From a virus (taxonomy: Duplodnaviria; Heunggongvirae; Uroviricota; Caudoviricetes): 6,095 nucleotides of DNA. Shown here one piece after another: positions 1,828 through 6,095 of this stretch. A program made the translations under genes and the position numbers. The stretch lies in the IMG/VR virus record IMGVR_UViG_2703718800_000011; one strand, written 5' to 3'. The notes under the pieces are model-generated. The model saw only the letters and a program-made list of their open reading frames with translations. It had not been told where the DNA came from and made no database searches. The stretch's first letter is position 1. Each line of letters starts with the position of its first letter.

Positions 1828-2328
1828 TCAGACTTTCGGCAAATCGTAGCGACATAACCATTCATCCGCCGAACGGCGGGCCTCAAGACCGGGGAGTTTC
1901 ACCCCCTTCGAATAAATCCAGCGGATGTACTGCTTACAGGACGCGGGCATCTGCCCGGCATTGATCAGGCGCAGAAGCGTGGAGTTGCGGAAGTTCGTTT
2001 CACCAGCCCAGAAGATCCACGAAGCCAGCGCCACCGTCTGACCACGGGTAAGCGGCACCTGAACACGCCGATCAATGGCCGCAAAGGCCCATTTCATGTC
2101 CTTTTCCAGTAGTTCCAGGCATTCTTCATCCGTCAGGGTCATACCCGGTTTCACATCCGGGCCGGTATGGCCGTAACAGATGGTTGGTGTACCGGTGGGA
2201 TCGATATACGTGGAGTTTTCTTTCCCTTCCCAGTAACCGGTGTAATGCGTGGTAATGGTGAACGTCCCGGCACCGGCCATAACAAGGGCAATCAGCTTTT
2301 TACGCAGTGGTGCGGGGAGTTTTGGCAT
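1828..2328 (-). CDS. SAR (signal-anchor-release) endolysin, phage lysozyme family (GH24, T4/P21-type)
   Basis: 166 aa. Weakly hydrophobic Gly/Ala-rich N-terminus LIALVMAGAGTFTITT typical of SAR domains. E...D...T catalytic arrangement in WEGKENSTYIDPTGTPTICYGHTG, then the GETNFRNSTLLRLINAG and GLEARR motifs that I recall from P21 R-type lysozymes. Confidence 0.85.
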   Translation of the reverse strand: MPKLPAPLRKKLIALVMAGAGTFTITTHYTGYWEGKENSTYIDPTGTPTICYGHTGPDVKPGMTLTDEECLELLEKDMKWAFAAIDRRVQVPLTRGQTVALASWIFWAGETNFRNSTLLRLINAGQMPASCKQYIRWIYSKGVKLPGLEARRSADEWLCRYDLPKV

Positions 2329-2399: not shown

Positions 2400-2822
2400 T
2401 CAGAAAAGTGGCGGTTGCGTTCTTGCCAGATGCAGACGGCGCTGTTCGCGTATGACGGTATAAATCTGGGTTTCTGACATCCTGTAATGGCGGCGCAGGG
2501 TTTCAATTTTTTCGCCCTGGCTCCAGCGGGAAAAAATCTCATTATTGCGCAGTTCGGTGAAAAGGGATTCACCGACCGGGAGATAATAACCACGCCCGCC
2601 CATGTACCCGGCCTGTGCGGCCGCAACTTTACGGGCAAGCATTCCTGCCTGAGCAGGTTCAATCCCCTGACGGTGCAGTTCAGCACTGATCACATCAACC
2701 AGGTCCCGCAGCGTGCCGGGCCAGTTCTTTTTCAGCTCATCATCAGGAATGTCATCCAGACGGTCAATCAGCGCGTGCAGCTGTTCGCTGTCACCAAACA
2801 TGCTCATCTGTGTTTCAGCCAT
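2400..2822 (-). CDS. Mor/C-family transcriptional activator (Mu middle/late activator homolog)
   Basis: 140 aa. N-terminal acidic region with MFGDSEQLHALIDRLDD; C-terminal GGRGYYLPVGESLFTELRNNEIFSRWSQGEKIETLRRHYRMSETQIYTVIREQRRLHLARTQPPLF matches my recollection of the Mor family (GG..YIP, RN..I...F.G, HTH, and the Mu Mor C-terminus ...RRMRRLKYRQYQPSLL). GGAGG SD 5 nt upstream of ATG 2822; located immediately upstream of the endolysin. Confidence 0.75.
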   Translation of the reverse strand: MAETQMSMFGDSEQLHALIDRLDDIPDDELKKNWPGTLRDLVDVISAELHRQGIEPAQAGMLARKVAAAQAGYMGGRGYYLPVGESLFTELRNNEIFSRWSQGEKIETLRRHYRMSETQIYTVIREQRRLHLARTQPPLF

Positions 2823-2854
2823 ACCCGCCTCCGGTCATCATTACACAGGGCAAG

Positions 2855-2888
2855 TTTAAAATAAAAATCCCGCGCTGTGGCGGGATTT
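2855..2888 (-). terminator. Intrinsic terminator hairpin, copy 1 (strong for minus-strand transcripts)
   Basis: AAATCCCGC-gctgtg-GCGGGATTT at 2865..2888: perfect 9 bp stem, 6 nt loop. On the minus-strand RNA the stem is followed by UUUUUAUUUU. Sits 43 nt upstream of the Mor/C-like ATG. Confidence 0.6.
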
Positions 2889-2930
2889 AGAGGCGCTGTA
2901 AATCATAACCCGAAATGAGCTGTGTATTTA

Positions 2931-3162: not shown

Positions 3163-3585
3163 ATGAAACAACCTCCATCTTTGCTTTTATCGTGCCCACC
3201 AGAACTGGCCCATGAACTCAATGATCTGGCGAAAGAGTATAAACTTACAAATCATAATATAGAAGCAGCAACACTTAGTGCTGCCGGAAGCGATATTGTA
3301 TTGATCGTTCTGGCCGCAGCTTCATGCGATGGGTTCTGGCAGGCATTAGCCAGTATGTTTCAGACGTGGTTACATCGTAAACCAACAAAACAAACACCCC
3401 CGGAAAAGAAAGTTATTCGTAGCGTCATTGTTCGTAGCTGGGAACACTATCAGGAGACAACTAAACAAACTGAATTTTATAACTTTGATGCTGATGAGCT
3501 GGCTAAATTGATAGCGTTATATGAAAAACCAGATGAAACAATTGGTTGCATAATCCCGTCAGAAACGGAAATTCAGGAAAAATAA
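3163..3585 (+). CDS. Hypothetical protein encoded by an opposite-strand, AT-rich moron cassette; one predicted hydrophobic helix; family not recognised
   Basis: 140 aa. The only convincing plus-strand ORF in the window. ATG 3163 is preceded by AAGGAAG with a 6 nt spacer. Stop TAA (3583..3585) runs directly into terminator copy 2. Composition is visibly more AT-rich than the flanking phage genes. Hydrophobic segment SDIVLIVLAAASCDGFWQALASMF; C-terminal half charged and acidic. Confidence 0.6.
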   Translation: MKQPPSLLLSCPPELAHELNDLAKEYKLTNHNIEAATLSAAGSDIVLIVLAAASCDGFWQALASMFQTWLHRKPTKQTPPEKKVIRSVIVRSWEHYQETTKQTEFYNFDADELAKLIALYEKPDETIGCIIPSETEIQEK

Positions 3586-3608
3586 AATCCCGCACTGTGG
3601 CGGGATTT
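3575..3608 (-). terminator. Intrinsic terminator hairpin, copy 2 (terminates the minus-strand early operon after the GemA-like gene; also follows the plus-strand cargo gene)
   Basis: AAATCCCGC-actgtg-GCGGGATTT at 3585..3608: 9 bp stem, 6 nt loop. On the minus-strand RNA it is followed by UUUUAUUUUU. Begins 4 nt after the GemA-like stop (3612). Near-identical to copy 1 over about 31 bp. Confidence 0.65.
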
Positions 3609-3611
3609 GGG

Positions 3612-4121
3612 TTAACAGGGGAATGATTTTTCATACAGCCTGCAAACGCGCTCATAACTCATCACTGCACGCTCCGACATATCCAGGGCTGCCAGCATTT
3701 TGCGGCGGTGCCAGCGTTTGAGACGCTCCAGCACATCAGAGGCCAGCTCGGGGTGTTGCTCCAGCCACTGCCAGTTAGCCACACCTTCGCCGCCGTTCTG
3801 CGCGGCCGTCTGCGATTGCACCCAGCGGTTAAGGGCCGTTTCCGCACCATCAGAAATAAAGCCCTGCCGGTGCATCACTTTCCAGATGGCGCGAATTTTG
3901 GCGGTCACCGTACCCGGCTTTAAGGCCCGGTTAACCGGTTTCTGACGCACTTTAAAACCGCGTTTTTTGAAAACATCCAGTACGCGGGATAACTCATCCG
4001 GTGACATATCCCGGCAACTGGCTTTACCGGTGGCTGCCAGCAGTGCGGATGTATAGGTTTCATCATCCAGAGCAAGCTCGCGTTTTGCCACATGAATGGC
4101 AGATATCAGTTTTCCTCTCAT
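3612..4121 (-). CDS. GemA-like protein (Mu gp16 family, DUF1018-type)
   Basis: 169 aa. N-terminus MRGKLISAIHVAKRELALDDETYTSALLAATGKASCRDMSPDELSRVLDVFKKRGF fits my recollection of the gp16/GemA signature (LI..IH.AK..L.LDD..YR.LL...TGK.S..DM...EL..VL). Start overlaps the upstream stop as ATGA. Confidence 0.7.
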   Translation of the reverse strand: MRGKLISAIHVAKRELALDDETYTSALLAATGKASCRDMSPDELSRVLDVFKKRGFKVRQKPVNRALKPGTVTAKIRAIWKVMHRQGFISDGAETALNRWVQSQTAAQNGGEGVANWQWLEQHPELASDVLERLKRWHRRKMLAALDMSERAVMSYERVCRLYEKSFPC

Positions 4122-4429
4122 ACCGTATTTACCTTTTTACGGACATGGAAAGCCTTTTCTGGCTCATTCCACCGGATATGATGCGTTGGCGGAATAATCA
4201 TTATGTGCCAGCCATCTCTGGTTGTTATTCGGCAGAAAAACTCACCGCTGTATAACACAATGGCCTGCTGAATAAGCGCATCCGCAGCCAGCTCAAGCAG
4301 ATATCTTTTATCAAAAAGGCTGATAATTTTCCGGCATAACCACCGGGTGATAACAAATGCGCCGAAAAACGATGTGATATATAAACACCAGAACAGCAGA
4401 GAAATATTGTCCGTTATTTGCTCATCCAT
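4118..4429 (-). CDS. Small membrane protein, unknown function
   Basis: 103 aa with one clear transmembrane segment ISLLFWCLYITSFFGAFVITRWLC. GGGAGA SD 6 nt upstream of ATG 4429. Sequence looks more AT-rich than its neighbours. Translationally coupled at both ends. Confidence 0.55.
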   Translation of the reverse strand: MDEQITDNISLLFWCLYITSFFGAFVITRWLCRKIISLFDKRYLLELAADALIQQAIVLYSGEFFCRITTRDGWHIMIIPPTHHIRWNEPEKAFHVRKKVNTV

Positions 4430-4754
4430 TGTGTATCTCCCGTAATTCCGGTAAAGCCGAAATATGGCACCAGTGCGTCACCTGTCCATCCTCATCTTCA
4501 AGGCAGGCTCCGGTTTCTTCATCAACAAAAAAACCTTCATACCCGATATGGCCGATGCGCAGCTCCTGTCGGTGACCGTACTGAACAATCAGTACAACAG
4601 CCTCCATATCAGGCGGGAAAGCATCATTCAGTGAATGCCAGGGATAACCGCGCAAATCCCCGAAATAAACCCCGGTCAGGGTTCCGCCACAGACCGGCAT
4701 CCCGGCGGCACATACCAGAGGTTCGTCTGATTCAACAAATAAGGTCGTTATCAT
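4422..4754 (-). CDS. Hypothetical acidic protein, unknown function
   Basis: 110 aa (MITTLFVESDEPLVCAAGMPVCGG...FVDEETGACLEDEDGQVTHWCH...). GGGAG SD 8 nt upstream of ATG 4754. ATGA overlap with the upstream gene and 8 nt overlap with the downstream one. Confidence 0.5.
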   Translation of the reverse strand: MITTLFVESDEPLVCAAGMPVCGGTLTGVYFGDLRGYPWHSLNDAFPPDMEAVVLIVQYGHRQELRIGHIGYEGFFVDEETGACLEDEDGQVTHWCHISALPELREIHNG

Positions 4755-5302
4755 GGCGTTAACTCCCGTAATACAGCGTCCCCGGCAGTCCGGCGATGGT
4801 GATAAATAAAATTCACCGTACTCTCGGATAATTCAAATTTCTCGCCTATTTCCCGGAAGGTAAGACGTCGTGGTGATTCAGCATCCCGTAATTCACGAAT
4901 AAGATGAACATCATCGTCAGGTATACGGGTGAAGGGCAGCAATTCTCCGTATTTTTTCATGCTTACGCCAATATATCGCGCCCGATTGTGGACAGAATCC
5001 CGGTCTCGCCCCAGATATTCTCCTATTTGCTTACCGGTCATCGTTCTGGCATTTTTTCGGATAAATTTATCTTCATCATGTTTAAATCTTGGACGTTTGC
5101 ATTTGAGCAACTCCGGGTAAGTACCGCGTAATAAAACAATCCGGTTATGTACACCCCAGAAACTTCTTTTTACCCTGACAGCAATATCCTTAACCGGGGT
5201 GGATGAATAAAGCGCAATCAGCAGCGCATCTTCTTCAGGTGTCCACGGACGGACATGAGCGGGGGCGCGACCTTTTCGCCCCATGGGTTGTAAAATCATC
5301 AT
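4751..5302 (-). CDS. Putative DNA-binding protein with repeated helix-turn-helix-like segments
   Basis: 183 aa. AGGGGGTGA SD upstream of ATG 5302. Contains WTPEEDALLIALY (SANT/Myb-like signature) plus two further HTH-like stretches, MTGKQIGEYLGRDRDSVHNRARYIGV and LTFREIGEKFELSESTVNFIYHHRR. Family not recognised. Confidence 0.55.
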   Translation of the reverse strand: MMILQPMGRKGRAPAHVRPWTPEEDALLIALYSSTPVKDIAVRVKRSFWGVHNRIVLLRGTYPELLKCKRPRFKHDEDKFIRKNARTMTGKQIGEYLGRDRDSVHNRARYIGVSMKKYGELLPFTRIPDDDVHLIRELRDAESPRRLTFREIGEKFELSESTVNFIYHHRRTAGDAVLRELTP

Positions 5303-5305
5303 ACA

Positions 5306-5536
5306 TCACCCCCTGACTCGCTTTTCAGCAGCATAAAACTCATCAGACAGAATTTCGGTCATTTTCTGATTTGCGGGTTTTACGCCGCACTCAAGGTAAA
5401 TCACATCGTCAACGCAGAACCACTTCACAGGGCCAAACATGATTGCCGAGAAATCAATACCCAGCCAGAACAACAGTGCATCGGTTCTGGCATACGTGAC
5501 GGGCGAATATTCACGCCACAGAAAGGTTTTCGCCAT
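5306..5536 (-). CDS. Hypothetical small protein
   Basis: 76 aa (MAKTFLWREYSPVTYARTDALLFWLGIDFSAIMFGPVKWFCVDDVIYLECGVKPANQKMTEILSDEFYAAEKRVRG). Stop lies 4 nt before the next start. Its 5' part overlaps the 104-aa ORF in another frame; weak SD. Confidence 0.45.
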   Translation of the reverse strand: MAKTFLWREYSPVTYARTDALLFWLGIDFSAIMFGPVKWFCVDDVIYLECGVKPANQKMTEILSDEFYAAEKRVRG

Positions 5537-5739
5537 AAGTCGCGATGAAAAGGATATTTGTCATCCATAAAGCGCAGCCCCTTAAAACAAAAGCCACTGA
5601 TACTGAATTCAAATACCGACCGGCACGCAACATTCAGCACGGCCTCAAGGCGTTTCGCCTCATCTTTTACCGTCTGGCAGTCCTGCTGGTATTTTTGCCA
5701 CGCAGCCAGCGCGGCAGGGTTTGATGTTTTAAAGAACAT
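5425..5739 (-). CDS. Hypothetical small protein; 3' extent doubtful
   Basis: 104 aa ORF whose ATG overlaps the upstream stop as TAATG. The N-terminal part (MFFKTSNPAALAAWQKYQQDCQTVKDEAKRLEAVLNVA) looks protein-like; the C-terminal part is Cys/Trp-rich and overlaps the 76-aa ORF, so the real gene may be shorter or frameshifted. Confidence 0.3.
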   Translation of the reverse strand: MFFKTSNPAALAAWQKYQQDCQTVKDEAKRLEAVLNVACRSVFEFSISGFCFKGLRFMDDKYPFHRDLWRKPFCGVNIRPSRMPEPMHCCSGWVLISRQSCLAL

Positions 5740-6095
5740 TACTCTACCTCCGCAGAAATCGCGGCAGGCGCAGCCGTCCGGTCAACAATCAGGTAACGCA
5801 GAACATGTTCGGTGATATTCCAGCCGCTTAAACCGCAGATAATGACGCCCAGGCGAATGTCGATATACGCCATCACAAACTGGGGCACGCCTTCTTTCAT
5901 GGCCTGCTCATCAACTTCAGCCACCACATAAACGGTTTCACAGGTCAGAACGCCCTGAGCAAATTCCCACGCCATCGACGGAATATCATGCCCCTCAATC
6001 CACGGCAGGGATTTTCTGAAGCTGCACCACTGAACATCATCAGCCGCACCTTCCTGGCTGCATTTGCGACGAACCGGCTGCACCGGGCGGGGACG
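5739..6095 (-). CDS. Hypothetical early-region protein; N-terminus probably beyond the window end
   Basis: Frame is open from the window edge (6095) to the stop at 5739. The track's start at 6083 is a GTG, and the first in-frame ATG is further in (MAWEFAQGVLTCETVYVVAEVDEQAMKEGVPQFVMAYIDIRLGVIICGLSGW...), so the true start is unresolved. No family recognised. Confidence 0.45.
   Translation of the reverse strand, partial: RPRPVQPVRRKCSQEGAADDVQWCSFRKSLPWIEGHDIPSMAWEFAQGVLTCETVYVVAEVDEQAMKEGVPQFVMAYIDIRLGVIICGLSGWNITEHVLRYLIVDRTAAPAAISAEVE

Follow-up and report, generated by a model that had tools for sequence, protein, structure and literature searches.

A small predicted membrane protein encoded directly upstream of gemA in the early region of Mu-like Escherichia coli prophages

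An AT-rich 103-aa reading frame, wedged between two early genes in a 6,095-nt stretch of phage DNA (the window), raises the question of whether it represents foreign cargo or a settled part of the phage, and of what its small, apparently membrane-bound product might do. The first-pass annotation had placed this frame (the TM gene in the following) in the early operon of a Mu-like phage. Its surroundings confirm that placement, as Pfam recognizes Gp11_C, GemA and Mor in the window, and over its whole length the window shares 99.9% identity with a Mu-like prophage of E. coli STEC2018-607 (NZ_CP075697), where the TM gene is annotated as a CDS. The window thus belongs to a Mu-like prophage of E. 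coli (STEC); prophages matching it at 90–95% identity occur in ~230 of 5426 complete E. coli genomes, and O157:H7 or other STEC strains are numerous among these. All substantial genes of the window are located on the minus strand (Table 1). The gene order in NZ_CP075697 is repressor, Ner, transposase A, B, small early genes, Gam, gp10-like, gp11-like, gp12-like, HTH protein, 110-aa protein, 103-aa TM protein, GemA, an insert described below, Mor, and the lysis and late genes. The TM gene therefore closes the semi-essential early region at its 3' end, with gemA following directly; it is contiguous with and on the same strand as the genes around it, between the transposition/gam/gp11/gp12 genes and gemA-mor, as befits a member of a Mu-like early region. 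A holin or other lysis-cassette protein was rejected on the same positional grounds, with the lysozyme gene and the spanins situated downstream of mor and the TM gene upstream of gemA.

Table 1. Positions of the TM gene, its sequence elements and other features of the window
Feature	Position	Strand	Basis or remark
Gp11_C match	5739-6083	-	Pfam
110-aa early gene upstream of the TM gene, phrog_6925	4422..4754	-	PHROGs match, no assigned role
Shine-Dalgarno-like GGGAGA, 6 nt upstream of the TM-gene ATG, in the 3' end of the 110-aa gene	4436..4441	-	Read from the sequence
8-nt start/stop overlap ATGGATGA with the 110-aa gene	4422..4429	-	Read from the sequence; TM-gene ATG at 4429-4427 and stop of the 110-aa gene at 4424-4422, both within the overlap
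CDS of the 103-aa membrane protein	4118..4429	-	ATG start; ORF list; phrog_17269; WP_001536798.1 in the 99.9%-identical prophage
Fusion scar, first six codons (MDEQIT)	4412..4429	-	Nucleotide comparison with L002 (MDDQIV..., start of the zinc-ribbon gene) and L004 (MDNSSLL...)
Predicted TM-helix codons, residues 9-31 (ISLLFWCLYITSFFGAFVITRWL)	4337..4405	-	Hydropathy, alignments
Juxtamembrane basic cluster and predicted cytoplasmic helix, residues 32-59	4253..4336	-	AF2 and charge distribution
Predicted small four-stranded beta domain, residues 66-98, the allele-variable part	4136..4234	-	AF2, alignment
4-nt ATGA stop/start overlap with gemA	4118..4121	-	TGA at 4120-4118, gemA start at 4121-4119
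gemA (gp16 family), downstream gene	3612..4121	-	PF06252, E=1.3e-29
Insert ORF, 140 aa	3163-3585	+	No family match
Insert ORF, 78 aa	2928-3164	-	No family match
Mor match	2400-2822	-	Pfam
Phage lysozyme match	1828-2328	-	Pfam

Chance ORFs of similar length are numerous in the window, so that a spurious frame had to be considered. This reading deserves hardly any credence and was ruled out by comparative data. The protein matches phrog_17269 (PHROGs v4) with E=5e-33 and 114 bits, residues 7–102 aligning to profile positions 2–97 of 98; homologues at 22–89% identity occupy the matching genomic position; dN/dS is well below 1 (see below); and the frame is equipped with a Shine-Dalgarno-like element and with overlapping start and stop codons. 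With the ORF itself, the profile match, the conserved position and dN/dS in agreement, the earlier description of the frame as a genuine 103-aa gene holds.

The gene leaves no intergenic space on either side, as it overlaps the 110-aa gene by 8 nt and gemA by 4 nt. These overlaps are what can be seen of the translational coupling on both sides that had been claimed from the sequence; from them we infer that translation of the TM gene is probably coupled to that of the upstream gene, and translation of gemA to that of the TM gene. The ATGA overlap with gemA is also present in the other two E. coli alleles, A2 and B (see below). In the Salmonella branch of the family, an 88-aa gene is interposed between the TM gene and gemA, so that coupling to gemA is not universal. 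Promoter-like matches occurred at chance level (four found, 4.3 expected), and no minus-strand terminator was found in or beside the TM gene.

The family is narrow. A word-indexed search of 5.8 billion proteins yielded six clusters, and an exhaustive HMMER search of 1.84 billion representatives contributed a single new relative of full length, P0010, which represents the Salmonella branch; its other new hits were two partial copies of the E. coli protein and two false positives among repeat proteins. The Salmonella proteins, likewise from Mu-like prophages, comprise 95–101 aa and show 21–27% identity. In RefSeq, the same gene of E. coli Mu-like prophages is represented by WP_001536798, WP_000370521 and WP_000378480, each named 'hypothetical protein'. 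Searching with a profile of all 14 sequences brought in no member from outside E. coli and Salmonella, and every source name was again 'hypothetical protein'. One record among 50,697 phage records was matched by tblastn, and a genome-wide gemA-locus scan returned only four loci, none of the four with the TM gene. Searches of Pfam, NCBIfam and PADLOC gave no significant match for the protein or the family, so that no known defence or anti-defence family claims it; a profile search of PDB sequences gave nothing even at E<=10, and the literature, searched by accession, by PHROG id and by topic, yielded nothing on the TM protein. Family-wide, F21, G23, W30 and R33 (in or just after the membrane helix), K41, A49 and G73 are invariant, and A24, I36, S37, L44 and P81 are nearly invariant. 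Some database copies (P0002, P0003, P0005, P0007 and P0024) are truncated or frameshifted (52–70 aa, or a 99-aa frameshifted form), which points to sporadic decay of the gene in resident prophages or to errors in assembly.

The AT-richness for which the gene had been singled out is real but modest. Its GC content is 42.9%, compared to 54.7% in gemA, 51.1% in the 110-aa gene and 46.6% in the HTH gene; the windowed GC calculation puts it at the 2.4th percentile of 312-bp windows in 3612–6095 (mean 0.49, sd 0.039; ~1.6 sd below) and at the 10th percentile over the whole window. The weight that this deviation had been lent is not borne out by its distribution over codon positions. GC1/GC2/GC3 of the TM gene are 0.44/0.37/0.48, so most of the deviation falls on codon positions 1 and 2, and GC3 is that of the upstream accessory genes (0.49 in the 110-aa gene and 0.41 in the HTH gene, as compared to 0.58 in gemA). 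The residues F, I, Y, N, K, M and L account for 43% of the TM protein versus 27–30% in its two neighbours, and the gene is AT-rich because a protein rich in I, L, F and K shifts mainly codon positions 1 and 2. The E. coli alleles all have 40–43% GC; in the alleles other than that of the window, GC3 is 0.40–0.46, like that of the accessory genes upstream of each, and the adjacent gemA has 55–57% GC with a GC3 of 0.58–0.64. AT-richness of the TM gene is therefore a by-product of an I/L/F/K-rich protein and of a place in an AT-richer accessory segment, and there is no evidence of recent foreign origin. The step in composition falls where this accessory segment gives way to gemA and the later genes, and the hydrophobic, lysine-rich TM protein makes it steeper.

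A recently acquired foreign gene, or moron, would account for the low GC content, and both the distance from gemA in composition and the uniformly low GC of the E. coli alleles would agree with such an origin. It is nevertheless very improbable, and a moron or low-GC foreign island was rejected: the gene overlaps both neighbours, with no intergenic DNA; promoter hits are at chance and no terminator flanks the gene; GC3 of the TM alleles (0.40–0.48) fits that of the upstream accessory genes (0.39–0.49), the surplus AT being found in codon positions 1 and 2; and the gene is settled in the same slot of E. coli and Salmonella lineages.

The true AT-rich insert of the window is the segment 2889–3584 between gemA and mor, with 35–41% GC. 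Near-identical terminator-like hairpins on the minus strand bracket it at 2865–2888 and 3585–3608, each consisting of AAATCCCGCCACAG[C/T]GCGGGATTT followed by a T-run. The insert contains two ORFs (Table 1) and is missing from the O157 relatives, in which the gap between gemA and mor is only 69 bp; it looks like a moron with a duplicated terminator. A terminator-like hairpin and T-run separate gemA from mor in the window (2823–2900) as well as in a relative (L004 5826–5894), at a place where the two genes overlap in Mu; if this hairpin is functional, expression of mor would need read-through or a separate promoter. At the other end of the window, the gp12-like gene (PF26885 / phrog_2314; 171 aa in relatives; window 5306–5739) is split into overlapping ORFs of 104 and 76 aa. 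At the junction, 5523–5524, 84 bp of NZ_CP075697 are replaced by 'AA', a net change of -82 bp that shifts the frame.

The product of the TM gene had been described as a single-TMD protein, and hydropathy agrees. Kyte-Doolittle averages over 19 residues exceed 1.6 only in windows starting at residues 8–11, with a peak of 2.09 over residues 9–27 and no peak elsewhere. The protein thus has one hydrophobic segment of bilayer length; the acidic N-region and a hydrophobic stretch of ~22 residues are unlike a cleavable signal peptide. Before the helix, the N-tail MDEQITDN contains three acidic and zero basic residues (net charge -3), while the flank after it (residues 29–42) contains five basic residues and one acidic residue (net charge +4). 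Based on hydropathy and on these charges, interpreted by the positive-inside rule, we infer that the N-terminus is outside and that the C-terminal part of ~70 residues is cytoplasmic. A short acidic N-tail, a single helix and a positive cytoplasmic flank are also traits of Pf3 coat-type (Nout-Cin, signal-less) insertion. This analogy suggests a possible insertion route for the TM protein and concerns its biogenesis only, not its function.

AF2, run on the 14-sequence alignment, predicted a helix comprising residues 2–59 (pLDDT 56–85 per 10-residue block) and four short strands within residues 66–98, with a mean pLDDT of 70.9, i.e. at moderate confidence; an earlier model from four sequences had a pLDDT of 62.8 and was too weak to use. 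The region of the predicted beta domain holds the family motif RI.T.DG...I.PP. Comparison of the model with BFVD and PDB by Foldseek gave no significant neighbour (best E=0.2–0.4, TM-scores <0.3).

The slot between the HTH gene and gemA, in which the TM gene resides, is a mosaic. In the window it holds the 110-aa gene and the TM gene. The O157 prophages contain either genes for 103, 116, 110 and 65 aa (the last a zinc ribbon) followed by the TM gene, or genes for 61, 110 and 65 aa followed by the TM gene, and a metagenomic relative contains genes for 61, 124 and 65 aa and the TM gene. Salmonella prophages have a dATP/dGTP pyrophosphohydrolase-like gene, a 106-aa gene, the TM gene and the 88-aa gene, followed by gemA. 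An E. coli relative (L002) has no TM gene; between 4549 and 5270 it carries homologues of Mu E14/E15, a 79-aa ORF on the opposite strand and intergenic DNA ahead of gemA, and its GemA begins with a different N-terminus (MNRASLITL...). A Citrobacter relative (L012 2513–2968) has no TM gene either, and an opposite-strand 151-aa ORF lies in its slot. Mu itself also does without the gene, as its gp13, gp14 and Mu_54 proteins, translated for comparison, are unrelated to the TM protein. Mu gp13/E14, gp14/E15 and Mu_54 resemble the TM gene in map position, as they too are early-operon genes flanked by the gp11/gp12-like genes and by gemA, but they encode zinc-ribbon and soluble proteins that share no sequence similarity with the TM protein, and Mu has an intergenic semi-early promoter before gemA where the TM gene has its ATGA overlap. 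We conclude that the slot upstream of gemA is a hotspot of module exchange, and that the TM gene is accessory, being missing from Mu, L002 and the Citrobacter relative, which have other modules in the slot.

The allele found in the window has undergone a rearrangement of its own. It is five residues longer than the 98-aa alleles because, by nucleotide comparison, its MDEQIT codons were once the beginning of a Mu E14-like zinc-ribbon gene (MDDQIV in L002) and are now fused in frame with codon 2 of the TM gene. The deletion-fusion preserved the upstream Shine-Dalgarno element and the ATGGATGA overlap.

The TM gene is under purifying selection, which acts with extreme strength on the membrane helix and less strongly on the tail predicted to be cytoplasmic. 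Over the whole gene, dN/dS is 0.22 relative to an 88%-identical allele and 0.16–0.31 relative to the 50%-identical allele. In the first 29 aligned codons (N-tail and helix), the E. coli alleles show 10–12 synonymous versus 2–4 nonsynonymous differences (dS 0.9–1.7, dN 0.03–0.06, dN/dS 0.02–0.07), while in the other 69 codons dN is 0.58 and dN/dS 0.2–0.4; the contrast in synonymous and nonsynonymous changes between the TMD region and the rest has a Fisher p=2.6e-4. The A and B alleles of E. coli share the stretch LFWCLYITSFFGAFVITRW unchanged, with the exception of P0006 (Y for C). The helix sequence itself is strongly constrained in the E. coli alleles, which is unusual for a mere anchor. The helix sequence is different in Salmonella, where only F21, G23, W30 and R33 are retained throughout in or just after the helix and A24 nearly so; strong conservation of the TMD therefore holds for the E. 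coli alleles only. Part of the TMD likeness between alleles could result from a recombination breakpoint inside the gene, given a between-allele nucleotide identity of 70–93% in the TMD half and of 40–57% in the tail. However, the 10–12 synonymous differences in the TMD argue against a breakpoint as the whole explanation.

A strongly conserved helix with small-xxx-small positions (T19...G23, A24...T28), suited to helix packing, could also belong to a small membrane toxin that kills the host or inhibits its division; its helices would form oligomers, and by depolarising or disturbing the membrane or the divisome they would shut the host down early. By annotation, the semi-essential early regions of Mu-type phages do hold host-killing functions such as kil. 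We regard a toxin as unlikely, since a separate Kil homologue (PF26843) is encoded elsewhere in related prophages, and since a pure pore would leave both the conserved, predicted-structured cytoplasmic domain of ~70 residues and the allelic dimorphism unexplained. The gene is also intact in ~230 resident prophages, although this is neutral on toxicity if it is repressed there. Membership in the Mu Kil family was rejected separately, as the TM protein has no Pfam match to it and the Kil homologues of related prophages adjoin B, far from the slot.

Sequence comparisons indicate that the TM gene exists as two anciently diverged alleles, A and B (~50% identity), in otherwise nearly identical prophages. 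Between an O157 prophage and the metagenomic relative, the TM proteins are 49.5% identical and the flanking proteins 93–100% identical, with 98.5% for the 65-aa upstream protein and 97.6% for GemA. Divergence is confined to the TM gene, nucleotide identity being 40–57% inside it, 90% in its last few codons and 97–100% just inside gemA. Two O157:H7 prophages with a median window identity of 99–100% over 30 kb differ in four divergent regions, namely the TM gene, the repressor, the neighbouring cassette slot and a segment ending the head-morphogenesis gene. The last of these islands, which lies outside the window (L016 28.2–28.6 kb, compared to L017), takes in the head-morphogenesis (F-like) gene at its 3' end together with the spacer behind it; in one of the two O157 prophages, a 'tRNA-OTHER' is annotated there. 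Across the 5426 complete E. coli genomes, the window's own allele, A1, was counted 6 times, A2 158 times (~164 for A in total) and B ~65 times.

The allelic comparison also bears on whether the TM protein could be a membrane adaptor, tethering GemA, or replicating or transposing phage DNA, to the membrane. A precedent is phi29 p16.7, an early membrane protein that organises phage DNA replication and consists of an N-terminal TMD, a helix and a small C-terminal DNA-binding domain. In its predicted early expression and order of parts, the TM protein resembles p16.7, a likeness of architecture only; host, phage type and fold of the C-terminal domain are unrelated. An adaptor would be in keeping with the ATGA overlap with gemA in all three E. 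coli alleles and with a TMD, long helix and small beta domain with a basic C-tail in the AF2 model, the weak Foldseek neighbours of which are small SH3-like DNA-binding domains (Cren7, integrase CTD) at a non-significant E of ~1 or higher. Such a role is nonetheless quite unlikely: GemA barely differs between prophages in which the TM protein is half diverged, so that the two do not co-vary; an extra gene separates the TM gene from gemA in Salmonella; and Mu and relatives have gemA without the TM gene.

The TM alleles were also compared with those of the immunity repressor. The repressor allele that accompanies B in strain Wll001 recurs beside A2 in strain B1_2 and in the cattle strains 120 and 131, and some B prophages carry another repressor. 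Linkage of the TM allele to the immunity repressor allele was rejected, as repressor allele c-1 was found with both A2 and B; the TM gene therefore reassorts independently of immunity.

This independence is relevant to superinfection exclusion, the role named first in the first-pass annotation, in which an early membrane protein would block DNA entry of a second Mu-like or other phage. T4 Imm and HK97 gp15 are small phage inner-membrane exclusion proteins, and the TM protein resembles them in small size, membrane anchoring, accessory status and modular exchange, but differs in that its functional domain is predicted to be cytoplasmic and in that it is not independently transcribed. The predicted inner-membrane location, the predicted early expression and two alleles that are exchanged as a module of their own, as conflict genes typically are, would all suit exclusion. 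Against it, the variable domain is predicted to be cytoplasmic, which would leave only ~8 residues on the periplasmic side, the one reached by incoming phage components; lacking its own promoter, the gene is probably not expressed in lysogens; and its alleles are not linked to those of the immunity repressor. Known exclusion families (Imm, SieA, gp15-type) were rejected as relatives, with no homology detected in Pfam, the PHROGs functional families, NCBIfam or PADLOC. Taken together, exclusion in this form is improbable.

We favour, at about even chances, the broader reading of the TM protein as an accessory factor, tethered to the membrane and made early, that takes part in host takeover, in exclusion between phages or in counter-defence. 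Functions for taking over the host or countering nucleases (Kil, Gam) are known from the early accessory regions of transposable phages. As an accessory factor of this kind, the TM gene would be transcribed with the early lytic operon, its translation coupled to the upstream gene and its ribosomes handed on to gemA. The product would be a bitopic inner-membrane protein in N-out/C-in orientation, with an acidic periplasmic N-tail of ~8 residues and a TM helix of ~22 residues, followed by a basic juxtamembrane cluster, a cytoplasmic helix and a small beta domain of ~35 residues. As the helix is near-invariant and under selection, it probably makes a sequence-specific contact within the membrane, either with copies of itself via a T19/G23/A24/T28 face or with a conserved inner-membrane protein of the host. 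The cytoplasmic tail, with its two old and freely reassorting alleles, probably engages a variable partner. For basic Mu-type growth, the TM protein would be dispensable.

A more specific and tentative possibility, to which we lend limited weight, is that the accessory factor serves as a specificity module of a so far undescribed conflict system. In that case the invariant helix would dock on a conserved inner-membrane protein of the host, and the dimorphic domain would act on a variable target in the cytoplasm by neutralising or mimicking it; a membrane-associated defence against phages or the protein of a rival phage could be such a target. Balancing selection on such a module would produce two 50%-diverged alleles that reassort among otherwise identical prophages.

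As it stands, the TM protein is an ordinary ORFan membrane protein, and the compositional cue that led to it is mundane. The gene is present in Mu-like prophages of ~4% of complete E. coli genomes, many of them O157:H7/STEC, and in Salmonella, and it is annotated everywhere as a hypothetical protein. A membrane-anchored protein that combines an invariant helix with a dimorphic tail is a plausible candidate for a so far undescribed interaction between phage and host or between phages.
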